NCBI GenBank assembly: GCA_964558655.1
Contig: CAZLEX010000002.1
Span: 65,600-129,599, forward strand
DNA: 64,000 nucleotides
Source of the DNA: an uncultured Oscillospiraceae bacterium
Lineage (GTDB): Bacteria > Bacillota > Clostridia > Oscillospirales > SIG627
Reading direction: 5' to 3'
The notes under the pieces were generated by a model, which saw only the letters and a list, made by a program, of their open reading frames with translations, did not search any database and was not told the origin of the DNA. This document shows, piece by piece, positions 21,380 to 39,464 of the stretch; position 1 is the stretch's first letter, and each line of letters starts with the position of its first letter. The translations under genes were made by a program, and so were the position numbers.

Positions 21380-23311
21380 ATGAAAATAAATATCAGACCG
21401 GGACGACGCTTTTTTATATGTGCCGGCACAGTCATTGCTTTTTTGTTTCTGTGCCTGTTCGGAGTGTTTGAACTGCATATGGACGGAAGCGTTATTCGGC
21501 AGGGTGCCGTAATTGCGGGTTCTGCTTTGCTGTTTTTGACAGCTTCCATGATAAGTGTCAGTTTTAAAAAGAGTTATGCCGCATGGATTGCGGCGGCGTT
21601 TTTGTCCTTGCTCAGTTTTGTTTTCGGGCAAATTCTTTTGGACCTTTCTCCGTTTGACATGAAATTCAAAATTATTTTGTCGAATTTTATTTTGATATGT
21701 TTTCTTTACGCTTTTTCTCTCACGGTTTTTCCAAGTACCCGATTCGGTCTGGCACTTCCCGCACTTGTGCTTTTCGTTTTTCATTTTGTGAACTATTCCG
21801 TGTATATGTTCAGAGGGCTGGAATTGACGGTAAGCGATTTTTACTCCGTTAAAAACGCTCTGGGAATTGCGTCGAAATATTCTCCGTACTTTACTTCTTC
21901 GGCCTTTATCTCCCTTTCGGTTTTTGCCTCATGTTTCGTGATAATTCTTTCGTCTGACTTTCCAAAAGTTTCGAAAAAGTTCAGAATATGTTCTCTTGTT
22001 TCGTCTTTGGTATTACTTACGGGGATTTTTGCTGAGGCGAAATTCGGTCCGGGAGAAATTGAGTGGTTTGGAAAAAACGGGACAAAATACAACGGTGCAA
22101 CCTACAATGTACTTGTCGAATTGAGGTGCAACACCGTAAGTCCGGGAGAAAATTACAGTGCGGAGAGGGCACACGAGATTATAAGTTCTTACGGCACCGG
22201 TACCGAAAGCGATCCGGATTCTCCGCACATCATCGTGATTATGAGCGAGTCCTTTGCCGACTTGTCGGTTTTGGGAGAATTGACGCTTGAGGGAGACGAT
22301 CCGCTTGAATTTTTCAATTCGCTTACGGAAAACACTGTTCGCGGAAGTGCGATTTCTTCGATATTCGGAGGAGGAACGGCAACTTCCGAATGGGAATTTC
22401 TGACGGCAAACAGCGAGGCGTTTCTGCCCAACGGTTCCATTGCCTATCAGCAGTATATTACCGACCATTCATGGAGTATTGTGGCAGCTCTTAAATCCGA
22501 AGGGTATACCGCAGTTGCCATGCACCCGTATGAAAACGGCTTTTGGAGACGCAATACGGTTTACGACATCATGGGATTTGACGAAATGTATTTCATGGAC
22601 GACCTGAGCAGCGATGATACGCTCCGAGATTTTGTTACGGATAGGTCTCTTTATTCCGATATAATCGAACGCTTTGAATCAAAAGATGACGGCGAGAAGC
22701 TTTTTATGTTCAATGTCACTATGCAAAATCACGGAGGATATCTGTACGGTGATTTTCAATCAACCGTTACTGCGGGTAATTCGGCGTGGACCGATGTTGA
22801 CCAGTATCTTTCGCTTTTGAAAATTTCGGATGATGCATTGAAAGAGTTTGTGGGTTATTTTGAAAACATTGACGAAAAAGTTTGCCTTGTGTTCTTCGGA
22901 GATCATCAGCCGGCACTTAATGTTGACTTCTTCAATGTGCTTCTCGGCTCGTCCGAACCGGATTTAAACGATACGGTAAAGAAATATACAGTACCGTTTA
23001 TAGTCTGGACAAATTACGAAAGCGAAGAGTGTGACGGAGTGCTTACAAGTCTCAATGCACTTTCCTCAATCGTTTTGGATAAGGCGGGAATATCGCTTCC
23101 GGCATATATCGAATTTGTCAAAGATTTTTCCCAAACCGTTCCGGTTGTCACGCCGTTTTGCTATTTTTCAAAGACTTACAATGAGTTTGTTCCTCTTTCT
23201 CAAGCCGAAGGCGATGAGCTTGAATGGATAGAAAAATATAAAATTTTACAGTATAATAACCTGTTCGATAAGAGCGGACGAGTAGAGGTATTTAAGTATG
23301 AGACTTACTGA
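21380..23311 (+). CDS. LTA-synthase-family sulfatase-domain membrane protein
   Basis: Polytopic N-terminal half plus an extracytoplasmic sulfatase/alkaline-phosphatase-like domain. Start at ATG 21380 after GAGGG. Confidence 0.75.
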   Translation: MKINIRPGRRFFICAGTVIAFLFLCLFGVFELHMDGSVIRQGAVIAGSALLFLTASMISVSFKKSYAAWIAAAFLSLLSFVFGQILLDLSPFDMKFKIILSNFILICFLYAFSLTVFPSTRFGLALPALVLFVFHFVNYSVYMFRGLELTVSDFYSVKNALGIASKYSPYFTSSAFISLSVFASCFVIILSSDFPKVSKKFRICSLVSSLVLLTGIFAEAKFGPGEIEWFGKNGTKYNGATYNVLVELRCNTVSPGENYSAERAHEIISSYGTGTESDPDSPHIIVIMSESFADLSVLGELTLEGDDPLEFFNSLTENTVRGSAISSIFGGGTATSEWEFLTANSEAFLPNGSIAYQQYITDHSWSIVAALKSEGYTAVAMHPYENGFWRRNTVYDIMGFDEMYFMDDLSSDDTLRDFVTDRSLYSDIIERFESKDDGEKLFMFNVTMQNHGGYLYGDFQSTVTAGNSAWTDVDQYLSLLKISDDALKEFVGYFENIDEKVCLVFFGDHQPALNVDFFNVLLGSSEPDLNDTVKKYTVPFIVWTNYESEECDGVLTSLNALSSIVLDKAGISLPAYIEFVKDFSQTVPVVTPFCYFSKTYNEFVPLSQAEGDELEWIEKYKILQYNNLFDKSGRVEVFKYETY

Positions 23312-24269
23312 TGAACAAATCAAAAAAATTACAAAAGGAGTCTGTGCCGTAGAGCAGGAAGAAGGGTATTGGCGTTTTTTGCGTTTCCAGAAAGAAGTTC
23401 TCACGGAACTTTCGGTAATAGGCGAGGAAAAGCGTATACAATCCCTTGTTCCGTCGGGTGTAAGGTTTGATTTTTACACCGACAGCACTGAACTTAAAAT
23501 CGGAGTTAAAACCAATTATATTACCGGAAATTTCGAACTCTGGGTTGACGGACTGTTAACAGATGTTGCCGGTGCGTCGGACAGCGATGCCGAGTGTGAA
23601 AAATATGTTGAATTTAAGATGAATGGCGGGAAAAAGCATATAGTGCTTTATTTCCCGACTTACGGAATTGCACGGCTGTCGTCTGTTGAACTTTCGGACA
23701 ATGCTTGGTTTGAGCCGTGCGAGGAAAAACCGCTTGCGGTATTTTTCGGAGACAGCATAACTCAGGGATATACTACACATTGGTCGTCGTTAAATTATGT
23801 CGCAAGGCTTTCGAGAAAGATGAACATGGATTTTCATAATTTCGGCATAAGCGGAGATATATTCAATACGGTGGTGACGAAAGCTTCTCTTTCACGAAAA
23901 CCGGAATATGTTTTCGCCTCTTACGGCACAAACGACTGGAAAGAAGGAAAGGGTTTTCCGTCTGAGATAAAAAAGAATATGCGTGACTTTTTTGTTCGGA
24001 TTTGTTCCAAGTATCCGGAGTCGAGAATCATCGATATTCTTCCTATTTGGCGTGCCGACGCCGATAACGGATATCCTTTCAAGTTTGCCGAACTTTCCGT
24101 TCTTATGCGAGAAGTTCTTCGTGAATTTAAGACGGTTGAGGTTATCGACGGGCTGACACTCGTGCCTCATGTGCCTGCACTTTTTGCAGACAGAAGTCTT
24201 CACCCCAATGAAACGGGATTTGAATTTTACGCCGACGGAATTTTCAATTACTTATCGCAAAAGGGTTGA
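23298..24269 (+). CDS. SGNH/GDSL hydrolase with N-terminal beta-sandwich domain, copy 1
   Basis: Block I FFGDSITQGY, then YGTNDW and a C-terminal H (SLHPNE). N-terminal GVRFDFYTDS region. Confidence 0.8.
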   Translation: MRLTDEQIKKITKGVCAVEQEEGYWRFLRFQKEVLTELSVIGEEKRIQSLVPSGVRFDFYTDSTELKIGVKTNYITGNFELWVDGLLTDVAGASDSDAECEKYVEFKMNGGKKHIVLYFPTYGIARLSSVELSDNAWFEPCEEKPLAVFFGDSITQGYTTHWSSLNYVARLSRKMNMDFHNFGISGDIFNTVVTKASLSRKPEYVFASYGTNDWKEGKGFPSEIKKNMRDFFVRICSKYPESRIIDILPIWRADADNGYPFKFAELSVLMREVLREFKTVEVIDGLTLVPHVPALFADRSLHPNETGFEFYADGIFNYLSQKG

Positions 24270-24354: not shown

Positions 24355-25329
24355 ATGAAGCTTAATGACGAACAAATCAGGAAAATTACGAAAGGTGTTT
24401 GTACCGTAGAGCAGGAAGAAGGTCATTTGCGTTTTTTGCGTTTTCCGAAAGAAGTTCTTACGGAACTTGCAAAAATCGATCAGTCCAAGCACACGCAGGC
24501 CCTTGTTGCGTCGGGTATAAGGTTTGATTTTTACACCGACAGCACAGATCTTAAAATCGGTATTACAACGACTTACGCTACGGCGAATTTCGAGCTTTGG
24601 GTTGACGGGGAGCTTACAAGTGTTGCCGGAGCAACCGACAGTATGGGTGAGAGTAAATCCGTGGGATTCAAAATGAAGGACGGAAAAAAGCATGTAGTGC
24701 TCTATTTTCCGACTTACGGAATTGTACGGCTGTCTTCGGTCGAACTTTCGGACAATGCTTGGTTTGAGCCGTGCGAAGACAAAACTCTTGCCGTATTTTT
24801 CGGAGACAGCATAACTCAGGGATATACGACACCTTGGGCATCGCTGAACTATGTCGCAAGGCTTTCGAGAAAGATGGATGTGGATTTTCATAATTTCGGC
24901 ATAAGCGGAGATATATTCAATACGGTGGTGACAGAAGCCTCTCTTTCGCGAAAACCGGAATATGTTTTTGCCTCTTACGGCACAAACGATTGGGGATGCG
25001 GAAAATTTTCTCCCGCAGAATTCAAGAAAAATATGCGTGACTTTTTTGTTCGGATCTGTGCTAAGTATCCGGAATCGAGAATTATCGATATTCTTCCTAT
25101 ATGGCGTGCCGACGGGTACACTGATGCTTGGTACCCCTTTAAATTCGAGGAAATTTTCGTTCTTATGAGGGAAGTTCTTCGTGAATTTAAGACGGTTGAG
25201 GTTATCGACGGGCTGACACTCGTGCCTCATGTGCCTGCACTTTTTGCAGACAGAAGTCTTCACCCCAACGAAACGGGATTTGAATTTTACGCTGACGGAA
25301 TTTTCAATTATTTATCGCAAAAGAGTTGA
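24355..25329 (+). CDS. SGNH/GDSL hydrolase, copy 2 (tandem paralog)
   Basis: Same motifs as copy 1 and collinear over its full length. Confidence 0.8.
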   Translation: MKLNDEQIRKITKGVCTVEQEEGHLRFLRFPKEVLTELAKIDQSKHTQALVASGIRFDFYTDSTDLKIGITTTYATANFELWVDGELTSVAGATDSMGESKSVGFKMKDGKKHVVLYFPTYGIVRLSSVELSDNAWFEPCEDKTLAVFFGDSITQGYTTPWASLNYVARLSRKMDVDFHNFGISGDIFNTVVTEASLSRKPEYVFASYGTNDWGCGKFSPAEFKKNMRDFFVRICAKYPESRIIDILPIWRADGYTDAWYPFKFEEIFVLMREVLREFKTVEVIDGLTLVPHVPALFADRSLHPNETGFEFYADGIFNYLSQKS

Positions 25330-26387: not shown

Positions 26388-26408
26388 TTTAAAGTTAATC
26401 GATTTTAA

Positions 26409-26445
26409 GCGGTTGAGAAATTTTCTTTCTCGGCCGCTTTTTTTT
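26409..26445 (+). terminator. Rho-independent terminator; left boundary of the T7SS-like island
   Basis: 12-bp stem GCGGTTGAGAAA / TTTCTCGGCCGC (one G-U pair) with a 5-nt loop, followed by T8. Confidence 0.8.
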
Positions 26446-26601: not shown

Positions 26602-27369
26602 ATGAATTATATCGTTTCTGCCGAAACGGACATCGGTATATTTAAGAATACAAATCAGGACAGCCTGTCCGTTAAAATCATAAATACTCCTGCCGGAAGA
26701 ACGGCTTTTGCGATTCTGTGTGACGGTATGGGCGGGTTGTCAAAAGGTGAAACGGCAAGTGCATCGGTTATAAAAGCGTTCGATGCGTGGGTACTTAACA
26801 CTTTGCCGAGCGTTTGCACTTCGGGCTTTGACGAAAACACGGTCAAAACTCAATGGGAAGAAATATTGCAAAATATGAACTCACGCATAAAATCGTACGG
26901 AGCAAAACAGGGAGTTAAGCTCGGTACGACGGCTGTGATTTTGCTTTTGACCGATAAAAAATATTTCATCATGAATGTCGGTGACTCAAGGGTATATGAG
27001 ATAAGAGAAAATTTAGTGAAGCTCACTGAGGATCAAACATTTGTTGCACGCGAGGTTGCACTCGGAAATATGACTGCCGAGCAGGCCGAAAAAGACGAAA
27101 GACGCAGTGTACTTTTGCAGTGTATCGGAGCGTCGAACGCGGTATACCCAGATTTTTTTGTCGGTGAAACGAAGCAAAACGCGGTGTATATGCTTTGTTC
27201 GGACGGTTTTCGTCATGAAATTACGGAGCAGGAAATTTTTGACGGTTTTCGTCCGGAAGTCCTTGTGAACGATTCGGTTATGAAGCAAAATTCCGTAAAT
27301 TTAATCGAACTTAACAAACAGCGTAACGAGCGGGACAATATATCGGTTATTTTGGTAAGAACCTTTTAA
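26602..27369 (+). CDS. PP2C-family Ser/Thr phosphatase
   Basis: ILCDGMGG, LCSDGF and DNISVILV motifs. I chose the ATG at 26602 (MNYIVSAETDIG), preceded by AAGGAAGG, over the start at 26554. Confidence 0.9.
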   Translation: MNYIVSAETDIGIFKNTNQDSLSVKIINTPAGRTAFAILCDGMGGLSKGETASASVIKAFDAWVLNTLPSVCTSGFDENTVKTQWEEILQNMNSRIKSYGAKQGVKLGTTAVILLLTDKKYFIMNVGDSRVYEIRENLVKLTEDQTFVAREVALGNMTAEQAEKDERRSVLLQCIGASNAVYPDFFVGETKQNAVYMLCSDGFRHEITEQEIFDGFRPEVLVNDSVMKQNSVNLIELNKQRNERDNISVILVRTF

Positions 27370-27386
27370 TTTTAAGGGAGAAAAGT

Positions 27387-29054
27387 ATGCTTGAAATCGG
27401 ATCACTCGTAGACGGTAAGTATAAAATACTCAATAAAGTCGGGCAAGGCGGCATGAGCGTCGTATACCTTGCAATGAACGAAAAAGCGAATAAACAGTGG
27501 GCAGTCAAAGAAGTCAGGAAAGACGGCGTTTTGGATTTTGAATCGGTCAAGCAGGGACTTATTGCCGAAACCGATATTTTGAAGAAGTTGAGTCACCCAA
27601 ATCTTCCGAGTATTGTCGATGTTATAGATACAAACGATTCTTTCATAATCATCATGGATTATATACAGGGTAATTCCTTAAACAAGGCACTTGAAGAATT
27701 CGGTGCACAGCCTCAGGAGTTTGTAATCGAGTGGGCAAAGCAGCTTTGCGATGTTCTCGGATATTTGCACAGCAGGAATCCCGCAATTATTTACCGCGAT
27801 ATGAAACCCGCCAACATTATGTTAAAGCCTGACGGAAATGTAACTCTTATAGACTTCGGAACAGCCCGTGAGTATAAAGAAAAAAATCTTGCCGACACGA
27901 CTTGTCTTGGGACCGTCGGCTATGCGGCTCCCGAACAGTTCGGCGGTATGGGGCAGACAGATGCCCGCACGGATATTTACTGTCTCGGTGCGACGCTCTA
28001 TCATCTTGTAACCGGAATGAATCCGTGCGAGCCGCCTTACGAAATTAAACCCATAAGGCAAATCAATCCCACGCTGTCGGGCGGATTGGAAAGAATCATT
28101 CAAAAATGCACACGCAAAGATCCTCAGGACAGGTATCAGTCATGTGCCGAGCTTATGTACGCACTCGAACATCATGAAGAAATTGATGATGTTCACCGCA
28201 AAAAACAGAAGAAAAAAGTAAAAAAATTCGTCACCGCCTGTGCTATGACAGTTGTATTTGCAGCTGTGTCTTTGTGGGGATATATATCGGCCGAAGACAA
28301 GAAAAGCGAAAATTACGAGGTAATACTCAAGTCGGCACAGACAGAAGAAGATTACTATAAAGCGATTTTGACAGATCCGGCAAGAGAAGAAGCGTATTTG
28401 GAGTTCAACGGTTATTTAATAAACGATTTTGAGCTTTCAAAGGAAGAAGGGCAGTCTCTTTTAAAGCTTTATATAGGACTTGATAACAAAAAGACGAACG
28501 GATTTTCGGAAAATGTGAATGTTTTGGGACGGCTTAAGGAAAAGAATCCCGACGGATATAATAAAGTGTGTTACGAAATAGGGCTGTCTTTTCTGTTCTA
28601 TTACGATGTTAAGATTGATACGGACCGATACTCAAATGCTTCAAAGTGGCTCAGAGAGGTTAAAGATGTATATCCGATAGCCGAAATTTACTGTGACATT
28701 TCAGACTGTCTCGAACTTATCAAACAATACAACGGTTCGAAAATCAAGCAGACGGAAAAAATGTACGAACAGTATGCGAACCTTTGGGAAATGACGGTTA
28801 AATTAAAATCGGGTGCCGACGGATTTGACGGAGTGGATTCCAAATTACAGGTATGGAACGAAATTGTGAAAATGATTGATTCGAATGTCATTGAGCTTCT
28901 TGAGGTTACATCTTCCGAAACGATGATTGAATTTCTCAATTCAATTTCCGAAGATTCGGAAAAAGTCAAAAAATCCGTTCTGGAAGAAGATATAAAAGAG
29001 CTTAGGCTGTCTGTTTCGGAGACGGTGAAAAAAATCGAATCGGCCAAAGCGTAA
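27387..29054 (+). CDS. Transmembrane Hanks-type Ser/Thr kinase without PASTA repeats
   Basis: G-loop GQGGMSVVY, Lys in WAVKEV, catalytic loop YRDMKPANIM, then DFGTA and YAAPE. One TM (FVTACAMTVVFAAVSLWGYI) and an extracytoplasmic, largely helical domain of about 250 aa. Confidence 0.9.
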   Translation: MLEIGSLVDGKYKILNKVGQGGMSVVYLAMNEKANKQWAVKEVRKDGVLDFESVKQGLIAETDILKKLSHPNLPSIVDVIDTNDSFIIIMDYIQGNSLNKALEEFGAQPQEFVIEWAKQLCDVLGYLHSRNPAIIYRDMKPANIMLKPDGNVTLIDFGTAREYKEKNLADTTCLGTVGYAAPEQFGGMGQTDARTDIYCLGATLYHLVTGMNPCEPPYEIKPIRQINPTLSGGLERIIQKCTRKDPQDRYQSCAELMYALEHHEEIDDVHRKKQKKKVKKFVTACAMTVVFAAVSLWGYISAEDKKSENYEVILKSAQTEEDYYKAILTDPAREEAYLEFNGYLINDFELSKEEGQSLLKLYIGLDNKKTNGFSENVNVLGRLKEKNPDGYNKVCYEIGLSFLFYYDVKIDTDRYSNASKWLREVKDVYPIAEIYCDISDCLELIKQYNGSKIKQTEKMYEQYANLWEMTVKLKSGADGFDGVDSKLQVWNEIVKMIDSNVIELLEVTSSETMIEFLNSISEDSEKVKKSVLEEDIKELRLSVSETVKKIESAKA

Positions 29055-29065
29055 GGAGAGAGCAA

Positions 29066-29554
29066 ATGACATACGACATTTACAGATACATATTTATCGG
29101 TGCGGCAATACTTTGCGGTATAATGTTTTTGCTGTCGGTATACTTCTTTATATTCTTTAAAATACCGAGCGTAATAGGAGATCTCACCGGTGCAAATGCA
29201 CGCAAGGCAATAAAAAATATCCGTGAGCAGAACGAGGCAAGCGGAAATAAAGGATACAGAGTCAGCGGTTTTAACGAAGCACGGGGGAGACTAACCGACA
29301 AAATTTCCGGCTCCGGCAGGATTGTACAGCGTAATGCAGGGCAAATGGCCGGGATTAATACGGAGAAAATTTCCACCGCACAACTGACTTCGGACAGTGA
29401 AAACCTAACGACTGTGTTAGATAACTCTTTTCATGACGAAACTACGGTTTTGCACTCTCCGGAAGAGACTTGCGAAAACGCTTCTTTCGAAATCGAATAC
29501 GAAATTACTTTTATTCACACAGATGAAATAATTAGTGCGGAGGAATACATATGA
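29066..29554 (+). CDS. Single-pass membrane protein, unknown function
   Basis: One N-terminal TM helix followed by a polar tail. Tight spacing with flanking genes. I recognise no family motif. Confidence 0.5.
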   Translation: MTYDIYRYIFIGAAILCGIMFLLSVYFFIFFKIPSVIGDLTGANARKAIKNIREQNEASGNKGYRVSGFNEARGRLTDKISGSGRIVQRNAGQMAGINTEKISTAQLTSDSENLTTVLDNSFHDETTVLHSPEETCENASFEIEYEITFIHTDEIISAEEYI

Positions 29555-30063
29555 GTACAAGAGGAACGGACCGCGTATGGCTGTATATCTCAATAGCTTT
29601 CTTTTTTCTGTTTTCGGTAAGCTTTTTGCTTATGCCTTTCGGGGACAGTACCTCTTCCGAAAGCGTTTCGGTATATACACTTATTTCGGGATCTTTGTTT
29701 TGGATATCGCTATTGTCGGGAATTTTCACGCAGGTTTTTCTGTCGCACAGAAGAAAAAAATGGTATGTGAAAAATCATGTCATTGAGGGAAGATTTTCCG
29801 GAAAATTGGGGCTGGTTTCCTTCTTTTCCAACACTGAGGCGACAGTTGCCGATGTAATTTGCATGATAAGTTTTTCGGCTTTGGCAATCTCAATGGTTTT
29901 GACGCACGGTGTCGGATATGTATGTTACATTTTTCTTTCTGTGTTTGTTTTTTCTTTCAGTATGCACTGTATATTAAACGGAAAAAATTACTATCATATT
30001 GTAAATCGTGAAAAAATGCTTCGAAGCCTTGAAAAAAGGCGTGTGAATACGGTAAAAAAGTAA
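29551..30063 (+). CDS. Four-TM membrane protein, unknown function
   Basis: Four hydrophobic segments. ATGA overlap with the upstream gene. Confidence 0.5.
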   Translation: MSTRGTDRVWLYISIAFFFLFSVSFLLMPFGDSTSSESVSVYTLISGSLFWISLLSGIFTQVFLSHRRKKWYVKNHVIEGRFSGKLGLVSFFSNTEATVADVICMISFSALAISMVLTHGVGYVCYIFLSVFVFSFSMHCILNGKNYYHIVNREKMLRSLEKRRVNTVKK

Positions 30064-30080
30064 AGCAAATAGTTTCAATA

Positions 30081-31736
30081 GTGAAATATCTTTCCGATTT
30101 GGCAAATGAAGAAAATATTTCCGTACGGTCTTTATGGCTGCCTCCCATTCCTCCGAAAATTTTTATTGATGAGCTTGAGAAAAAATATCGGAATACATCA
30201 GTCGGGACAAATCTTTGTCCCATTGTCGGAGAATATGACGATCCGTTTAATCAAAAACAGGGTGTATTGACAGTACCGCTTTCATCTGAGGGCAACTGTC
30301 TTATCTACGGTTCGGCAGGTAACGGTAAAACTACTATGCTGACCGCAATAGCGTATTCGCTTATTCGAAATCACAGTGCCGAAGAGCTCAATCTTTACAT
30401 CATGGATTTCGGTTCTGAAACACTTAAAGTTTTTGAAAAAGCCCCGCAAGTCGGAGGTGTGATTGTTTCCTCAGATTCCGAAAAAACAATTAACTTCTTT
30501 AAAATGTTACATAAAGAAGTTGAACACCGTAAAAATCTATTTTCGGAGTTTGGCGGTGATTACGCCGGATATTGTAAAAATAGCGGCAAGACAGTTCCCA
30601 ATATTGTTGTTCTTATCAATAATTATGCCGGTTTTGCCGAACAGTATGAGGATTTAATCGAGTCTTTTGCTTTGCTTACCAGAGACGGTGTGAAATACGG
30701 TATTTATTTTGCCGTCAGTGCAAGTAATACCAACGCAATCCGTTATGTTATGGCACAGAATTTCAAAATGACTGTGTGTATGCAGCTTAACGATGCGACG
30801 GATTATTCCGTTGTAGTGGGTAAGACCGACGGACTTATTCCCTCAAAGTATAAAGGCAGAGGATTAGTGGCGTTGGACAGAGTTTATGAATTTCAAACCG
30901 CTTACTGCAGCGATGCAAGCGATACCTTTGAGTTTTTAAGCGAATATTGTGAAAAGCTTAAAGAAAATGCTACAATTTTTGCTAAGAAAATACCTGTTTT
31001 ACCGGAGATTGTCAATTTTGATTATGTTAAGGGAAACATTGCCGATTTGAAAAATGTCCCGGTCGGTATTTCAAAGAGGTCGCTCGATATTGTATCCTGC
31101 AATATTTTCGGTAAGGTTGCCTATCCTGTACTTTCGCAGGAAATCCGCCAGAGTGTAAGCTTTACGGAAGAATGGATTAAGGTTATTAGCACGCTTGCCA
31201 ATGTCGTCTGTATTGACGCTGAACAGATTCTCGATATTGAAGGTCAAAACAGCATTGATGTTGTCAGAGACAATTTTGAAGAATATGTTCACGCGCTTTT
31301 TGACGATACGGTAGAACGCAACAATACTTATAAAGACGCCGGAATGGATCCCAAATCTCTTGAAGCCTTCGAACACAAGGTTGTTGTGTTTGCGGGTTAC
31401 AAACGGTTTTTGAGTTTGCTCTCGGCTGACGGGCAGGAAAAGATAGGACTTGTTCTTCTGAAAGCCGAAACAATTTATAAACTGCATTTTATTGTTATCG
31501 ATTCCGTATCCGATTTCGGATCCTACAATTATGAAGCATGGTGTAAAAAACAGATTACAGGTGCCGAAGGAATTTGGGTTGGTGACGGAGTGGCGGATCA
31601 GTACACACTCAAGGTGAATAAGCTTACCAATGAATTGTACGAGGATATCGGTGACGAGTACGGTTATGTCTTTAACAGAAGCCGTCCGACGCTTGTAAAG
31701 TTACTTTCGTCTGTAGATAAAGAGGGGGAAGAATAA
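30081..31736 (+). CDS. FtsK/SpoIIIE-family ATPase, EssC/EccCb-like (two P-loop domains only)
   Basis: LWLPPIP linker motif, Walker A GSAGNGKTT and Walker B-like LYIMDFG, then a second degenerate domain with no Walker A. No TM segment and no FHA domain. GTG start. Confidence 0.8.
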   Translation: MKYLSDLANEENISVRSLWLPPIPPKIFIDELEKKYRNTSVGTNLCPIVGEYDDPFNQKQGVLTVPLSSEGNCLIYGSAGNGKTTMLTAIAYSLIRNHSAEELNLYIMDFGSETLKVFEKAPQVGGVIVSSDSEKTINFFKMLHKEVEHRKNLFSEFGGDYAGYCKNSGKTVPNIVVLINNYAGFAEQYEDLIESFALLTRDGVKYGIYFAVSASNTNAIRYVMAQNFKMTVCMQLNDATDYSVVVGKTDGLIPSKYKGRGLVALDRVYEFQTAYCSDASDTFEFLSEYCEKLKENATIFAKKIPVLPEIVNFDYVKGNIADLKNVPVGISKRSLDIVSCNIFGKVAYPVLSQEIRQSVSFTEEWIKVISTLANVVCIDAEQILDIEGQNSIDVVRDNFEEYVHALFDDTVERNNTYKDAGMDPKSLEAFEHKVVVFAGYKRFLSLLSADGQEKIGLVLLKAETIYKLHFIVIDSVSDFGSYNYEAWCKKQITGAEGIWVGDGVADQYTLKVNKLTNELYEDIGDEYGYVFNRSRPTLVKLLSSVDKEGEE

Positions 31737-31987
31737 TGAAAAAAGTGTTGGTAGAGGTTTTTGTACCCGTTATCGATACCCGTTACGATGTATTTATTCC
31801 CGGCAATTCTCAAATGTCGGAAGTTTTGGAACTTTTGAAAAAAGCTGTTGCCGATTTATCCGGAGGGCGTTTCGTTGCCACCGGAGATGTGGCTGTATGC
31901 TACCGTGAAAACGGTTCTATTATCAATGTTAACATGACGGTTTATGAACTCGGAATTCATAACGGCTCAAAACTCATGTTGATATAA
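31736..31987 (+). CDS. YukD/EsaB-like ubiquitin-fold protein
   Basis: 83 aa. Its beta-grasp-like sequence pattern (RYDVFIPGNSQMSEVLELL...ELGIHNGSKLMLI) and its position directly after the EssC-like gene match EsaB/YukD. Confidence 0.7.
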   Translation: MKKVLVEVFVPVIDTRYDVFIPGNSQMSEVLELLKKAVADLSGGRFVATGDVAVCYRENGSIINVNMTVYELGIHNGSKLMLI

Positions 31988-32010: not shown

Positions 32011-32313
32011 ATGGCAAGAAACATTCAGGTAACCCCAGAACAATTGGAATCCACCGCAACACAAATTGATAGTTTGGCAGCAGACTATAAGTCTCAGTAT
32101 GATCTGCTCTATAAGGAAACCGATGCGATGGCTTCTACATGGAACGGAAAGGACAACACGGCGTTTACCAATCAGATCGCAGGCTTTAAGGACGATTTCG
32201 AGAAGATGCACACTTTGATGCTTAATTATGCCGATTTCTTAAGAAAAAGTGCAAAATCTTACCGTGATACGCAGGATACCGTTGTATCCGAAGCTCGTAA
32301 ATTACAGAATTAA
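32011..32313 (+). CDS. WXG100-family protein (EsxA-like)
   Basis: 100 aa helical hairpin with a central W-N-G (ASTWNGKD). Strong GGAGG RBS. Confidence 0.85.
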   Translation: MARNIQVTPEQLESTATQIDSLAADYKSQYDLLYKETDAMASTWNGKDNTAFTNQIAGFKDDFEKMHTLMLNYADFLRKSAKSYRDTQDTVVSEARKLQN

Positions 32314-32330: not shown

Positions 32331-32630
32331 ATGGCAGACAACATTAAAATTTCAACACAAGTACTTACAGACACAGCTCAGAAAGTTCGTAATTGCAATA
32401 CTGCAATGGACGACAAACTTAAAGAAATCAATGACAAAATGGACGCTTTGGGAAGCACATGGAAGAGTGACGCAGCTACAGATATTCGTGACGCTATGAA
32501 CGCATTAAAATCGAAGTTTGAACAATACAAAAATGTCATTGAATCTTATGCAACATTCCTTGTAAATACCGCTCAGAGCTATGAGTCAACCGAAGGAGCT
32601 ATTCAGACCAACGCAAACGCATTTAAATAA
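32331..32630 (+). CDS. WXG100-family protein, variant W-K-S turn
   Basis: 99 aa with the same architecture. The turn reads GSTWKSDA. GGGAGG RBS. Confidence 0.75.
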   Translation: MADNIKISTQVLTDTAQKVRNCNTAMDDKLKEINDKMDALGSTWKSDAATDIRDAMNALKSKFEQYKNVIESYATFLVNTAQSYESTEGAIQTNANAFK

Positions 32631-35174: not shown

Positions 35175-35687
35175 ATGGCGATTAATGTTAACACTGCAAA
35201 CAGTCAAGCCGAACAATTGAATAACAGCATTTCTCAGTTGCGAAATGCCCGTAAGCAGATGTTAGCATATAAATCTTCTGTTTCGGGCAGTTGGCAGGGG
35301 AAAGAAGTCAATTATATTTTGAAAGCAATCGACCAAGTCGTCGGAGATATTGACAGTGCTGTGGGTGAACTCGATTCATTGAGAAGCGATATCAAGAATG
35401 CGGCAGCTCAGATCAAGCGTGAAGAAGACGCTGCCGCAGCGGCTGCCCGTGCGAGAGCGGAAAAACAGCAAAAAATTACTTATGCACAGAATGTTTACGA
35501 CAGTGCAAGCGAGGAATTGGAGTCATTGACGGATAAAAGAAATAAGCTTGAAGAAAAGTTAAAGAGTGCTTCTTTTACGGAAAAAATTCGCATTTACGAG
35601 GAAATTAAATCCCTTGACAAAAAGCTTGAAGAGGCAAAGGACAAATGCGAAAGTGCGTACGATGCATTAAGGACGGTTAAAAGATGA
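35175..35687 (+). CDS. WXG-like coiled-coil protein (170 aa)
   Basis: The N-terminal 90 aa resemble a WXG100 hairpin with W-Q-G (SGSWQGKE). An Ala-rich linker and a further coiled coil follow. Confidence 0.55.
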   Translation: MAINVNTANSQAEQLNNSISQLRNARKQMLAYKSSVSGSWQGKEVNYILKAIDQVVGDIDSAVGELDSLRSDIKNAAAQIKREEDAAAAAARARAEKQQKITYAQNVYDSASEELESLTDKRNKLEEKLKSASFTEKIRIYEEIKSLDKKLEEAKDKCESAYDALRTVKR

Positions 35688-36790
35688 CCATGAATAAATT
35701 TAAAATCGAATATCTCGCCGATCAAAAGTTTCTTGTTGTTCATGGGCAAAAGGGACAGCAGATAAGCGAACGCGAGTATTATGCGATAAGCAAAGGTCAG
35801 ATACCGGGCTTGCTTCGCGCACAGTTAGTCAGAAAAGGAAATACATTCAGGCTGAACTATAATATATCCGGATATATTTCGCTAAGAGAGTTTCTCGTCA
35901 ATCCTCTCAGTAAGTCCACTTTTGTAAAACTTCTCGGCAACATTCTGGATAATCTCAAATTTTTGCAGAACGCTTACTACAACTATCAATTTATATTGAT
36001 GGATATGAATGCCGCGATGGTTAATCCCGCAACACAGCAGGTGAGCTTTGTTTATGTGCCGATAACCTTTTACGAAAGCGGTACAAATCTGAAAGATTTT
36101 TTGCTCGGTATCATTCAATGCTGTTCTTTTATTCCCGGAGAAAATACCGATTATGTCCGCGATTACATAATAATTCTCAATAGCGGAATTAATTTTTCGC
36201 TGTTTGATTTGGAGGAATATGTCAAAAGGCTGAAAATTGACGAACATACGGTTAAAAATGTCAAAAAATGCACTCATTGCGGCAGTGTGATTTTGCCCAA
36301 TGTCAATTTCTGTTCTTCCTGCGGAATGAAAATCTCCGGCCTGAATACAGATGACCGACAGGGAATATACGATCCTGCCGAAAGTATGCTTCAACCTTTG
36401 AAAAAAGGCGAAAGATTAAATTATTCGGCGGTGAACGGAAAAGAGCAGTATTGTGAAAGTGTGTCGGTAAATGTTATTAACGGAGATGGACAGGTAAGGG
36501 CGTACATATTCAGAATCAAAACAGGGGAACAGATACCGATTACATCGAATTTGTTCAGAGTCGGCAAAGATCCGAACGCTTGCGAATACTGCGTCAGAAA
36601 TAATCCCGCAGTGAGCAGATGTCACATTTTAATAAAACGGGTAAACGGTAAACCGTTTCTTACGGATTTAAATTCGACAAATAAAACTTACATTGATGGG
36701 AAAATGATTTTGCCGAATACGGATATACAGCTGTATGACGGCATGAACATAAGACTTGCAAACGAAGATTTTATATTTAAATTTTATTAA
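35684..36790 (+). CDS. FHA-domain protein with central zinc ribbon
   Basis: C-terminal FHA (FRVGK...VSRCHILI...LTDLNSTNKTYIDG). Double CxxC (CTHCGSV...CSSCGMK). An uncharacterised N-terminal domain of about 190 aa. Confidence 0.85.
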   Translation: MTMNKFKIEYLADQKFLVVHGQKGQQISEREYYAISKGQIPGLLRAQLVRKGNTFRLNYNISGYISLREFLVNPLSKSTFVKLLGNILDNLKFLQNAYYNYQFILMDMNAAMVNPATQQVSFVYVPITFYESGTNLKDFLLGIIQCCSFIPGENTDYVRDYIIILNSGINFSLFDLEEYVKRLKIDEHTVKNVKKCTHCGSVILPNVNFCSSCGMKISGLNTDDRQGIYDPAESMLQPLKKGERLNYSAVNGKEQYCESVSVNVINGDGQVRAYIFRIKTGEQIPITSNLFRVGKDPNACEYCVRNNPAVSRCHILIKRVNGKPFLTDLNSTNKTYIDGKMILPNTDIQLYDGMNIRLANEDFIFKFY

Positions 36791-37099: not shown

Positions 37100-37120
37100 T
37101 TTTTACAGGAGGTGATAACG

Positions 37121-38428
37121 GTGAGCAGAACAAAAATCAATGTTTCGGCGGTAATTGACGCATCGGGGCAAATCAATTCCGCAAAAACTTATGTCTCTTC
37201 TGCTAAAAGCACATTCACCGGAGCAAAAAATGGCATTGACGGCAAAATAAAAAGCAGGTATAACATAAATAACAGGCTTGTTTCCGTTCAAAAGCAACTG
37301 TCGGATATTGACGGTAAGATAAGTAAAATTCGTGCCACCGTTCAATCGGGAGCAAACCTTTACCGTGAAACTGATGACAGAGTGAAGTCTTGGAGGAAAG
37401 ACTTGAATGTCGGCATGAATGTCAACGGTGCAGTCATAAGTAAATGGGCTTTATACTTTAAAAACAACGATGCCGACAATTCAAATGATATTTTCGGTTC
37501 CGACTCATTTAAAGTGTATGCTGATAAAAATAAAACGGAGCACTCCGAAGAATATTTCAAATCAAAAGAATACAGTAAGACCTCATCGTTTAAATCCGAC
37601 GGAGAATTTGACGATATAAGCGAGGATGCTGAAAAATGGAAAGAAAACAAAAAGAAAAAATTAGAAGATAAAGGACTCTATAGAGAAGAAAAAGAGACAA
37701 AGTACTATAACAAGGACGGAAATGAAATCAGCAAGGAAAATGCACCTAATTTTTATGAGCGTCAAGCTACACTTGGCGAGTGGAGCGTTGAAAATAAGAT
37801 TTCTGTTTCTTATTATGAAGGTACATTTGATACCATGCTTGGCGGTGTTGCAGCTGTTACAGTCGGAGAGGCGGAAATGCATGCGGAATTTTCAGCCGGT
37901 TGCTATATAATCGGAAGTGATGGGAAACAAGTTTTCAGTCCCGGCGTTAATGCGGAAGTTGGAGGTAGTGCAACTGCTTTTAATGTCACTTATGAGAATC
38001 AACTTTTTGGCGATGAAATGTTAGGTATGAATGTTGACGGTTCCGTTACAGCCCTCTCTGTTTCTACCGAAGTCGAACTAAATGTTAACTTTATGGGTAA
38101 AGATGAAAAAGGGAATGTTGTTTTTGACCCACAAGTTAATGTCGGTGTAGATGCTGAAGTCGTATTGGTTGAAGTAGAAGGAAGTGTTGGTGTTAATATT
38201 TTAGGCGGAGAGGCCAGTGTTTCCGGAAGTGTTAAGGTGGGCTTTGGAGCTAATGCCGATGTCGGATATAAAGACGGCGTATTTAAATGTGAAATCGGTG
38301 CATCTTTAGGTATTGGATTTGATGTGGGCTTTGAAGTGGATGTTGGCGGTATGGTGAATACCGCAGCCGATGTCGCTTCATCGGCTTGGGACGGCCTGAA
38401 AAACGGTTGGAACAGTCTTTGGGGATAA
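37121..38428 (+). CDS. Candidate T7SS substrate/toxin: helical N-terminus plus Gly/Val-rich C-terminal domain
   Basis: The N-terminal ~100 aa form a helical hairpin-like region ending ...LYRETDDRV. The middle is charged. The C-terminal ~190 aa show an alternating V/G/A/D pattern. GTG at 37121 lies 8 nt after AGGAGG, whereas the GTG at 37112 overlaps that RBS. Confidence 0.5.
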   Translation: MSRTKINVSAVIDASGQINSAKTYVSSAKSTFTGAKNGIDGKIKSRYNINNRLVSVQKQLSDIDGKISKIRATVQSGANLYRETDDRVKSWRKDLNVGMNVNGAVISKWALYFKNNDADNSNDIFGSDSFKVYADKNKTEHSEEYFKSKEYSKTSSFKSDGEFDDISEDAEKWKENKKKKLEDKGLYREEKETKYYNKDGNEISKENAPNFYERQATLGEWSVENKISVSYYEGTFDTMLGGVAAVTVGEAEMHAEFSAGCYIIGSDGKQVFSPGVNAEVGGSATAFNVTYENQLFGDEMLGMNVDGSVTALSVSTEVELNVNFMGKDEKGNVVFDPQVNVGVDAEVVLVEVEGSVGVNILGGEASVSGSVKVGFGANADVGYKDGVFKCEIGASLGIGFDVGFEVDVGGMVNTAADVASSAWDGLKNGWNSLWG

Positions 38429-38431
38429 AAG

Positions 38432-38857
38432 ATGAGCGAATATAAGTTTGTGCTATTTCTGATAATAGGAATAATTTTTTTGTTGATTCATTTGTTTGAT
38501 GTCAAAACCGATAATTTTCAATTTGAGCAATATGACGGCTTTGGAACTATAACAAGAATCAACATGAATGAAAGAGGCCGTACTTGGTATTATGTTGACA
38601 TTAATATCAACGGGCAAGTTTATAGTGCACAAACCGACGCTTATAAGATTGTTCCGAAAGGCGTTGATAAAGGTGATACGGTGTCGGTTAAATATCACTT
38701 TACAAAAAATGGTTTTGTAAGATGTTATATTACACAAGACGGTTTTGAACGAGTTATTCAAGAAAATCAAAATAAGACACCTATAATGTTATATATCGCA
38801 ATTATATGCTTTACTGTTTTTGCATTTATGTTCGTTAAAATTTTGTTGAATTTTTGA
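38432..38857 (+). CDS. Two-TM protein (TM, beta-rich domain, TM), candidate immunity protein
   Basis: It starts 3 nt after the candidate toxin gene. The topology resembles DUF3592-type proteins. Confidence 0.5.
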   Translation: MSEYKFVLFLIIGIIFLLIHLFDVKTDNFQFEQYDGFGTITRINMNERGRTWYYVDININGQVYSAQTDAYKIVPKGVDKGDTVSVKYHFTKNGFVRCYITQDGFERVIQENQNKTPIMLYIAIICFTVFAFMFVKILLNF

Positions 38858-38916
38858 AATAAAGATTGATAAATATTCATGACTATAGTATAATTAAAAA
38901 AACGGAGGTAATAGCT

Positions 38917-39198
38917 ATGTTTCAAGGTTTGTTGCCGATAGGTTCGGTAGTTCTTTTAAAAGATAGCACTAAAAGAGTTATGATTATAGGTGTTTGTCAA
39001 AAAGGTGCTAATGATCCGTCTAAGATTTGGGATTATGCAGGTGTAGTTTTTCCCGAAGGCTATCTTTCTGCGGATAAGGTCTTTCTTTTTGATACCAACC
39101 AGATAGGTCAAATATATCAGATTGGATATCTTGATGCGGAGTCTCTTGCATTTAAGGTTAAGGTTGATGAAGCAATTAAGAAGATCAGAGAAGAGTAA
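38917..39198 (+). CDS. DUF4176-family protein
   Basis: LPIGSVVLLKD...MIIG...WDYAGVVFPEG pattern. ATG at 38917 follows GGAGGT. I know this family as a T7SSb accessory. Confidence 0.75.
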   Translation: MFQGLLPIGSVVLLKDSTKRVMIIGVCQKGANDPSKIWDYAGVVFPEGYLSADKVFLFDTNQIGQIYQIGYLDAESLAFKVKVDEAIKKIREE

Positions 39199-39400: not shown

Positions 39401-39444
39401 TGTTACAATATTGACGGTACGGCAAGAAGCTGTACCGTCAATAT
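39401..39444 (+). promoter_or_regulatory. Extended -10 element plus 13-bp perfect inverted repeat in the GH42 leader
   Basis: TGtTACAAT (39401-39409). ATATTGACGGTAC (39408-39420) / GTACCGTCAATAT (39432-39444) with an 11-nt loop, ending 20 nt before the GH42 start. Confidence 0.5.
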
Positions 39445-39464
39445 TTATATTTAGGAGAAAAAAG

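Follow-up and report, generated by a model that had tools for sequence, protein, structure and literature searches.

Does the membrane-bound protein kinase encoded in this locus take the place of EssB/YukC, the pseudokinase of the T7SSb variant among type VII secretion systems (T7SS), or does it have a different role? The kinase, a protein of 555 amino acids (aa), is encoded in a 64,000-nucleotide stretch of DNA (hereinafter, the window: positions 65,600 to 129,599 of contig CAZLEX010000002.1, assembly GCA_964558655.1) from an uncultured Oscillospiraceae bacterium. An initial annotation, made from the sequence of the window, noted that the protein combines the layout of EssB with an intact active site and raised the possibility of an ancestral or alternative state in which the EssB position is filled by a working kinase. 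The analysis described here leads to a different answer. The 555-aa protein is a TseD-type kinase of the T7SSe variant, a type that has already been described, as assigned by the gene list of the locus together with the layout of the protein. We consider it fairly likely that TseD-type kinases function in a reversible phosphorylation switch that regulates secretion, akin to the PpkA/PppA/Fha pathway of type VI secretion systems (T6SS), rather than as a structural component of the EssB kind.

The complete catalytic signature of Hanks kinases is present in the protein at the expected spacing. A motif script located the glycine loop GQGGMS (residues 19-24), the Lys of AVK (Lys41), the alphaC Glu61, the catalytic loop YRDMKPAN (136-143, with Asp138, Lys140, and Asn143), DFG (156-158), the activation-loop residues Thr171/Thr172, APE (181-183), and Asp196 and Arg249 of subdomains IX and XI, and so recovered all the catalytic elements listed in the initial annotation. 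Hence the kinase is apparently active and catalytically competent, a statement that is based on motifs and not on geometry because the kinase half of the full-length AlphaFold2 (AF2) model is poor. The replacement of the His of HRD by Tyr is real and not unusual: among the 29 kinase-bearing representatives of the family defined by the extracellular domain (ectodomain), 20 have Tyr and 9 have His at this position, and YRD is the normal motif in AGC kinases, e.g., PKA, so that the Tyr is no warning sign. A hydropathy scan detects a single hydrophobic segment (approximately residues 278-302), and the stretch HRKKQKKKVKK immediately before it indicates that the kinase domain faces the cytoplasm. 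In the full-length AF2 model, residues 263-315 form one continuous helix, and the C-terminal 254 aa consist of predicted helices and one small hairpin, with a predicted local distance difference test score (pLDDT) of 80-95. Thus, the EssB-like layout and the helical nature of the ectodomain of about 250 aa are both borne out by hydropathy and modeling, and so is the lack of PASTA repeats, for which the search against Pfam gave no match.

The ectodomain, which likewise has no match in Pfam, defines a small and specific protein family. A query consisting of the transmembrane (TM) helix and the ectodomain retrieved only 98 clusters among 1.84 billion representative proteins, and in nearly all of these the matched part (approximately residues 270-550) is joined to a kinase-length N-terminus, yielding full-length proteins of 500-680 aa. 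In one family member (P0125), the ectodomain is part of a secreted, non-kinase protein. In a 30-member alignment of the family, the catalytic residues are largely retained (K41 in 28/30, D138 in 26/30, N143 in 29/30, and D156 in 27/30), with losses in three members (P0141, P0185, and P0194).

With respect to EssB, the similarity does not extend beyond the topology, namely a cytoplasmic kinase fold, a single TM helix, and an extracellular domain. The degenerate active site of the EssB type is not found here, all catalytic residues being retained, and the ectodomain appears to have a different fold. When the full-length model was compared with the Protein Data Bank (PDB) using Foldseek, it retrieved active kinases only, led by Stk1/PknB of S. 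aureus; because the kinase half dominated this search, the ectodomain was modeled separately (residues 262-555; mean pLDDT 87.7) and searched alone. This second search yielded no match at E<=0.001: the best matches were generic TPR and designed helical repeats (TM-score 0.13-0.40, root-mean-square deviation 8-19 Å), and there were no EssB/YukC entries, and hence no sign of the fold of the EssB C-terminal domain, among the best 50 of 931 weak matches. The EssB/YukC structures 6z0f, 9qks, 4ano, and 2ynq were confirmed by sequence search to be PDB entries. Furthermore, no protein of the locus, the kinase included, matched the YukC model PF10140 or the NCBIfam EssB models, in accord with the claim that this T7SS-type locus lacks a recognizable EssB. 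Profile comparison with hhalign, for which the YukC query of B. subtilis was checked against PDB 9qks_C and 6z0f_A, gave a probability of 0.55% for the 30-sequence alignment of the kinase family against YukC alone and of 0.35% against a 17-sequence YukC/EssB alignment, a shallow profile given that the search for YukC homologs produced 26 mostly fragmentary proteins. In a kinase-like register, the alignment pairs the region from alphaC to DFG of TseD with residues 39-128 of YukC, without reaching significance. Thus, no specific relationship between the kinase and EssB is detectable by sequence or model comparison, and the proposal of an EssB ancestor is not supported. The general idea of an active kinase with the layout of EssB is, moreover, already in print: TscD shares the EssB topology without apparent sequence identity to EssB and keeps its active site (Garrett, Higginson & Palmer, Microlife 2024; PMC11217815).

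Another candidate for the missing EssB-like pseudokinase is DUF6382 in the TseJ-like protein, for which all comparisons remained below significance. A 43-sequence DUF6382 profile reached E ~0.2 against the PDB sequences, with JAK2 only and in the alphaC-to-alphaE region, and hhalign comparisons with the TseD family, with YukC, and with the YukC/EssB alignment yielded no significant match, again in a kinase-like register. This domain (positions 35684-36283 of the window; ~190 aa, cytoplasmic, and fused to FHA) may be a degenerate kinase-like domain.

In contrast to the results with EssB, the closest relatives of the kinase and of the adjacent phosphatase are readily identified. For the kinase domain, the closest relatives are Stk1/PknB/StkP (PDB 4eqm/9ymt, E=2e-35). 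The domain matches the Stk1 family model NF033483 with E=8e-61, in the kinase half only (model positions 1-284 of 563) and with 207 bits against a family cut-off of 450. The PP2C phosphatase, in turn, is closest to Stp1/IreP and contains the motifs DGMGG, SDGF, and DNIS. Its open reading frame (ORF) is open from 26554, and the ATG at 26602 is internal and yields the 255-aa length that is called in close relatives. The kinase start follows the end of the phosphatase gene after a gap of 17 nucleotides, as originally described, and the order of phosphatase then kinase is that of the housekeeping genes. Taken together, these observations fit a housekeeping Stp1/Stk1-type pair that was duplicated or recruited, a new ectodomain having taken the place of the PASTA region.

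The system to which this pair belongs can be identified from a survey in which eight new T7SS variants were defined, among them T7SSe of gut Clostridia (PMC11217815). The T7SSe list includes the WXG100 pair TseA/TseA2, the YukD-like TseB, the ATPase TseC with N-terminal FHA domains, the membrane Ser/Thr kinase TseD, the PPM phosphatase TseF, the cytoplasmic DUF6382-FHA protein TseJ, the single-pass protein TseH with an unstructured cytoplasmic tail, the large surface protein TseI with Ig domains, and TseK, a second single-pass protein (PMC11217815). The window encodes TseA, TseA2, TseB, TseF, and TseJ together with TseH-like and TseK-like proteins; TseC is represented by a C-terminal fragment only and TseI is absent, both being complete in close relatives; intact loci are present in, e.g., the genomes of L023 and of L007/L086. 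The 555-aa kinase has the layout given for TseD, with at least one TM helix, an active site that is conserved, and an extracellular C-terminus made up of helices. The T7SS context that had been recognized from the sequence is accordingly confirmed with regard to YukD, the two WXG100 proteins, an FtsK/EssC-type ATPase, the DUF6382-FHA protein, and DUF4176, except that the "EssC-like ATPase" is a C-terminal fragment.

Comparison of related loci (denoted here by L numbers) reveals that the kinase is a conserved component of the system and not a chance neighbor. The window's ATPase fragment, used as the query, retrieved 80 genome loci, mostly from gut and rumen metagenome-assembled genomes labeled Acutalibacteraceae, Lachnospiraceae, Oscillospiraceae, Eubacteriales, or Ruminococcus, with a few isolates, among them the Caproiciproducens galactitolivorans isolate of L029. 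In approximately 25 of these 80 loci, the kinase is linked to ATPase and WXG100 genes, in two gene orders. The conserved unit is a four-gene module that encodes the PP2C, the kinase, the TseH-like protein, and a protein with four TM helices (hereinafter 4-TM protein) and that travels together with the ATPase, YukD, WXG100 pair, and DUF6382-FHA genes in many Clostridia. The module either comes right behind the TseJ-like gene or, as the closest relatives show, is located upstream of a giant Ig-like gene (2,200-3,800 aa). The 4-TM gene, whose 170-aa product in the window gave no match in Pfam or NCBIfam, follows the TseH-like gene in at least 12 loci. In one locus (L086, 19610-21621), the giant Ig-like gene is immediately followed by genes for a LytTR response regulator and a histidine kinase, situated between the kinase module and the region of the ATPase; these could constitute a transcriptional control layer of the same system. 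Of the findings that the initial annotation took to count against an EssB relationship, lack of structural similarity to EssB and a PrkC-like kinase domain were indeed obtained, but the family is clearly T7SS-linked.

A potential substrate of the kinase is encoded by the next gene of the module. The 162-aa TseH-like protein has a TM segment (residues 4-40) followed by a positively charged juxtamembrane stretch so that, by the positive-inside rule, its tail is predicted to be cytoplasmic. In the TseH-like family (homologs L001-L059), the juxtamembrane pattern IP..IGDL.G....K.I...RE.N and the C-terminal pattern F.I......H..E.I are conserved, and the homologs contain 2-14 tandem repeats centered on T-[E/T/Q]-[V/I]-L, with 14 in L058. 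The T-x-[V/I]-L motif occurs 2.52 times per 100 aa in this family compared with 0.04-0.05 times in the remaining ORFs of these loci, a ~55-fold enrichment. The 574-aa DUF6382-FHA paralog of L023, a representative of the 570-600-aa paralogs that are encoded upstream of tseC in relatives, contains two copies of the same type of motif (ETTVL) directly in front of its FHA domain. A T-Q-V-L sequence at the N-terminus of the second WXG100 protein, which raises the motif count of that family, was rejected as a phosphorylation site and is regarded as the ordinary N-terminal pattern of WXG100 proteins. The locus type also encodes FHA domains: those of TseC in the relatives display the canonical signature IGR...SG.H...STNGT, and the TseJ-like protein of the window has RVGK...SRCH...NSTNKT. 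FHA domains commonly favor phosphothreonine with a hydrophobic residue at the +3 position, and ETTS of GarA is the classic site that is written by a kinase and read by an FHA domain. On the strength of their position, their enrichment, and their resemblance to known FHA ligands, we propose that phosphorylation and FHA docking in this circuit take place at the T-x-[V/I]-L repeats. A conserved phosphothreonine-binding consensus has been reported for the TseC FHA domains, and regulation by phosphorylation has been suggested by analogy to T6SS (PMC11217815).

These observations can be combined into a mechanistic scheme. The ectodomain would sense an envelope or cell-surface cue, perhaps via the giant Ig-like surface protein that is encoded beside the module in the closest relatives, whereupon the kinase would autophosphorylate on the activation-loop Thr171/172 and phosphorylate the threonines in the T-x-[V/I]-L repeats that the TseH-like protein carries in its cytoplasmic tail and possibly also, in the relatives, the same motif before the FHA domain of the DUF6382-FHA paralog. 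The resulting phosphothreonines would be bound by the N-terminal canonical FHA domain of TseC and by the TseJ-type proteins, so that this binding would gate how the secretion machine assembles or fires, and the PP2C would reset the switch. Several observations weigh against this scheme. The TseH-like protein of the window itself has only two T-x-V-L motifs. Most FHA domains of the TseJ type have Lys in place of the first Arg, which could weaken phosphothreonine binding, the SR.H and NSTN.T elements being kept. The kinase domain has a pLDDT of 30-70 in the full-length AF2 model, a low value attributable to a shallow alignment. It is also possible that, besides signaling, the kinase is a structural part of the membrane complex. 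A more elaborate version, which we regard as possible rather than probable, is that the repeats form a multivalent docking array, written by TseD, erased by the PP2C, and read by TseC and the DUF6382-FHA proteins, such that the number of phosphorylated repeats would set the threshold for T7SSe assembly or firing, and that the catalytic losses within the family would be a living example of a kinase turning into an EssB-like scaffold.

The state of the ATPase gene in the window bears on how much of this scheme could operate in this particular genome. In most of the 80 loci the ATPase-bearing ORF spans 1,509-1,550 aa; most shorter ORFs are interrupted by a contig end, and four or five have genuinely different lengths. 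The 551-aa product of the window aligns to the C-terminal end and matches positions 742-1294 of 1296 of NCBIfam T7_EssCb_Firm. In the TseC of L023, the FHA domain occupies residues 117-178 and the FtsK/SpoIIIE domain residues 672-868; both are missing from the copy in the window, and so is the hydrophobic N-terminal region. A tblastn search with this TseC detected in the window only residues 961-1529 (the last 569 residues of ~1,530 aa), at 30024-31730, and nothing was found in the 64-kb window with its residues 1-960, with TseI, or with the 574-aa FHA paralog. The giant Ig-like gene and the 570-600-aa DUF6382-FHA gene, which separate the kinase module from the ATPase in close relatives, are absent here. 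A natural split subunit of the EccCb kind was rejected as the primary explanation of the 551-aa ORF, since the window encodes no N-terminal partner and the homology to tseC reaches upstream beyond the GTG codon at 30081, as far as the final codons of the 4-TM gene. The junction looks like that of a deletion with microhomology, which would have taken tseI, the second FHA gene, and the first ~960 codons of tseC, leaving a kinase module that is either orphaned or serves a copy of the system elsewhere in the genome. The heptamer A_AAA_AAG is present at 30054-30060, in the zero frame of the 4-TM gene and just before its TAA stop (30054-30063). A -1 shift at this site would continue into the ATPase frame and produce a membrane-anchored ATPase fusion; the heptamer is probably a coincidence because it corresponds to a native coding stretch of tseC, G-K-K-V-K, in the relatives.

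The truncation invites the explanation that the whole locus in this genome is a decaying remnant, with a kinase that is intact in sequence and no secretion function left: tseC is reduced to residues ~961-1529 with no obvious start signal, and tseI and the 570-600-aa FHA gene are missing, with no match elsewhere in the window. We consider this explanation unlikely, given that all remaining ORFs of the locus are intact, without internal stops, so that any decay must be recent; furthermore, the genome may contain another, complete locus beyond the window, and the junction might stem from an assembly error. Split forms of the ATPase do occur, as in L081, which has ORFs of 998 aa and 530 aa, and EccCa1/EccCb1 of ESX-1 are a known split ATPase. 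More improbable still, in our estimation, is that the kinase holds the structural position of EssB/YukC, be it as an ancestral, still active EssB or as a parallel replacement. The shared topology, the lack of an EssB homolog in the locus according to Pfam and NCBIfam, and the kinase-like register of the TseD-YukC alignment, for all its lack of significance, can be cited in its favor, and the catalytic losses in three of 28 kinase-bearing family representatives indicate that drift toward a pseudokinase does occur in this family. These points are set against an ectodomain with no detectable structural match to EssB/YukC, profile probabilities below 1%, and the signs of a housekeeping origin, namely the affinity of the kinase to Stk1/PknB and of the phosphatase to Stp1 and the stp1-stk1 gene order. 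The dedicated phosphatase, the canonical FHA domains, and the repeat array speak for reversible signaling, and the FHA domains of EssC in T7SSb lack the phosphothreonine site (PMC11217815).

The same housekeeping affinities are open to an opposite interpretation, under which the PP2C and the kinase are a general-purpose Stp1/Stk1-like pair that merely adjoins the T7SS island and has no role in secretion. The best matches of both catalytic domains are indeed the housekeeping Stk1 and Stp1 families, and in one relative a distance of ~21 kb, which includes at least a two-component system, separates the kinase module from tseC. Nevertheless, we deem this the least credible of the alternatives. The kinase lacks the PASTA repeats, its ectodomain family is tiny and specific, the pair is tied to T7SSe genes in many genomes and in both gene orders, and it is always accompanied by the TseH-like repeat protein and often placed directly after the TseJ-like gene. 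Moreover, the published definition of T7SSe counts the kinase and the phosphatase as core genes (PMC11217815). A reversible phosphorylation switch in the service of secretion thus remains the reading that we prefer.

The features of the locus are compiled in Table 1. Beyond the genes already discussed, the YukD-like gene follows the ATPase gene in nearly all loci, the gene of the predicted 804-aa lipoprotein follows the WXG100 pair in 19 loci, and in 24 loci the TseK-like gene comes after the TseJ-like one; the genes for the 438-aa protein and DUF4176 occupy the same position in 15-20. The genes at 37112-39198 resemble a set of T7SS cargo, immunity, and accessory genes, for which they are candidates, with their roles suggested by this resemblance. 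The GC content is 0.37-0.40 within the locus block compared with 0.42-0.49 in the flanks, and in the relatives L002-L005 the PP2C gene has a phage-type integrase gene close by on its upstream side. The low GC content, the terminators, and the integrase in relatives suggest a mobile or island-like history. Tandem paralogous GDSL/SGNH esterases of 323 aa and 324 aa are encoded at 23298-24269 and 24355-25329, among the sugar-utilization genes upstream.

Table 1. Predicted features of the T7SSe-type locus, with positions counted from the first nucleotide of the window
Feature	Position	Strand	Evidence and remarks
Terminator-like hairpin, left boundary of the locus	26407-26439	+	14-bp stem, then T-run; closes upstream sugar-metabolism gene; GC 0.42-0.43 in flank, 0.37-0.40 inside locus
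PP2C/PPM Ser/Thr phosphatase, TseF-like, 255 aa	26602-27369	+	Pfam PP2C_2 E=6e-9; NCBIfam Stp1/IreP (NF033484) E=2e-48
TseD-like Hanks Ser/Thr kinase, 555 aa	27387-29054	+	Kinase domain, one TM helix, helical ectodomain
Cytoplasmic kinase domain, residues 12-251	27420-28139	+	Pfam Pkinase E=3e-50; all catalytic motifs
Single TM helix, ~residues 281-301	28227-28289	+	Hydropathy scan; Lys/Arg-rich stretch on kinase side
Extracellular helical-repeat domain, residues 302-555 (254 aa), family-specific	28290-29051	+	AF2 model, pLDDT 87.7
TseH-like single-pass protein, 162 aa	29066-29554	+	N-terminal TM anchor, cytoplasmic tail
Two T-T-V-L motifs of TseH-like protein	29408-29452	+	Residues 115-118 (ENLTTVLD) and 126-129 (DETTVLH)
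Membrane protein, 170 aa, ~4 TM helices	29551-30063	+	Hydropathy; directly after TseH-like gene
Candidate deletion junction	30024-30063	+	3' end of 4-TM gene overlaps tseC-homologous codons ~961-975 (DNA/protein comparison with L023, L006, L007, L008)
TseC/EssC ATPase, C-terminal fragment, 551 aa from GTG	30081-31736	+	NCBIfam T7_EssCb_Firm
YukD/EsaB-type ubiquitin-like protein, TseB-like	31736-31987	+	Pfam YukD E=1.3e-5, 26.3 bits against gathering score of 27
Two non-identical WXG100 genes, TseA/TseA2-like	32011-32313, 32331-32630	+	Pfam WXG100 E=5e-16, 5e-15
Predicted lipoprotein, 804 aa	32737-35151	+	N-terminal hydrophobic segment ending ...MIGC
Helical WXG-like protein, 170 aa	35175-35687	+	Weak WXG100 match, E=0.005; position upstream of TseJ-like gene conserved
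TseJ-like cytoplasmic protein	35684-36790	+	Pfam FHA E=1.6e-13, DUF6382 E=2.5e-8, zinc ribbon E=2e-6; no TM segment
TseK-like protein, 97 aa	36806-37099	+	N-terminal TM helix, Q/Y-rich tail, C-terminal zinc ribbon
438-aa protein	37112-38428	+	Helical N-terminus, Gly-rich glycine-zipper-like C-terminus
141-aa membrane protein	38432-38857	+	Candidate cargo set
DUF4176 protein	38866-39198	+	E=2e-26
Second strong terminator-like hairpin, bracketing the gene series	39407-39445		Hairpin scan

The T7SS variants of gut Clostridia have seen almost no experimental work. For the question of how a T7SS of Bacillota is switched on post-translationally, loci of the type analyzed here present a compact, testable circuit that includes a sensor kinase, a phosphatase, a proposed repeat-array substrate, and FHA readers, and the repeat motif is a well-defined place to begin mapping phosphosites and assaying peptide binding. 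The genome analyzed here is itself a poor choice for such experiments because of the truncated ATPase. With regard to the EssB proposal, the value of the present analysis is mainly corrective, a recruited pair of the Stk1/Stp1 type being a better explanation than an EssB ancestor. The new elements are the repeat array, the four-gene module, the occasional pseudokinase members of the family, and the truncated state of the locus.

Among known systems, the published T7SSe is the nearest: TseD, and its counterparts TscD and TsdD of T7SSc and T7SSd, have the same kinase layout and the same component list as the window, which lacks tseI and most of tseC, and the main text of that study mentions neither the T-x-V-L repeats of TseH nor, as far as we have seen, the conserved 4-TM protein (PMC11217815). 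The PASTA kinases Stk1/PrkC/PknB with their phosphatases Stp1/PrpC are the nearest sequence relatives of both catalytic domains and share the gene order, but the pair described here has no PASTA repeats, an unrelated ectodomain, and a linkage to T7SS rather than to cell-wall genes. EssB/YukC of T7SSb (PDB 6Z0F, 9QKS, 4ANO, 2YNQ) has the same layout and the same setting in a T7SS locus, but it is a pseudokinase, whereas the kinase here is catalytically complete, shows no significant sequence or profile similarity to it, and is accompanied by a phosphatase and by FHA domains with the canonical signature.

The closest parallels in regulatory logic come from other secretion systems. In the H1-T6SS of Pseudomonas aeruginosa (PpkA/PppA/Fha1) and in Agrobacterium (PpkA-TssL-Fha), a single-pass Hanks kinase, a PP2C, and an FHA protein are encoded inside the secretion cluster, and a phosphorylated membrane or scaffold protein read by FHA triggers assembly (PMC11217815). 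The kinase, the PP2C, and an FHA protein are likewise found within one secretion-system cluster in the window. The machine and the envelope are different and the proposed substrate here is a tandem repeat array; the similarity is one of organization and, as proposed, of function, not of homology. PpkA carries a periplasmic domain of the vWA type, where the kinase described here has a helical repeat. In Actinomycetales, the threat-sensing Esr pathway, which consists of a kinase/phosphatase pair and an FHA output protein, often with zinc-finger modules, and whose genes accompany those for Esx and for a filamentous surface protein, has been shown experimentally to control Esx secretion, and the threonine phosphorylation of its FHA protein has been demonstrated as well (bioRxiv 2026, PMC13622651). 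Esr comes from another phylum, and its MoxR, vWA, and beta-propeller sensor proteins have no counterparts seen in the window, the likeness being one of description; nevertheless, this precedent supports the general logic of secretion control by a kinase, a phosphatase, and an FHA protein.

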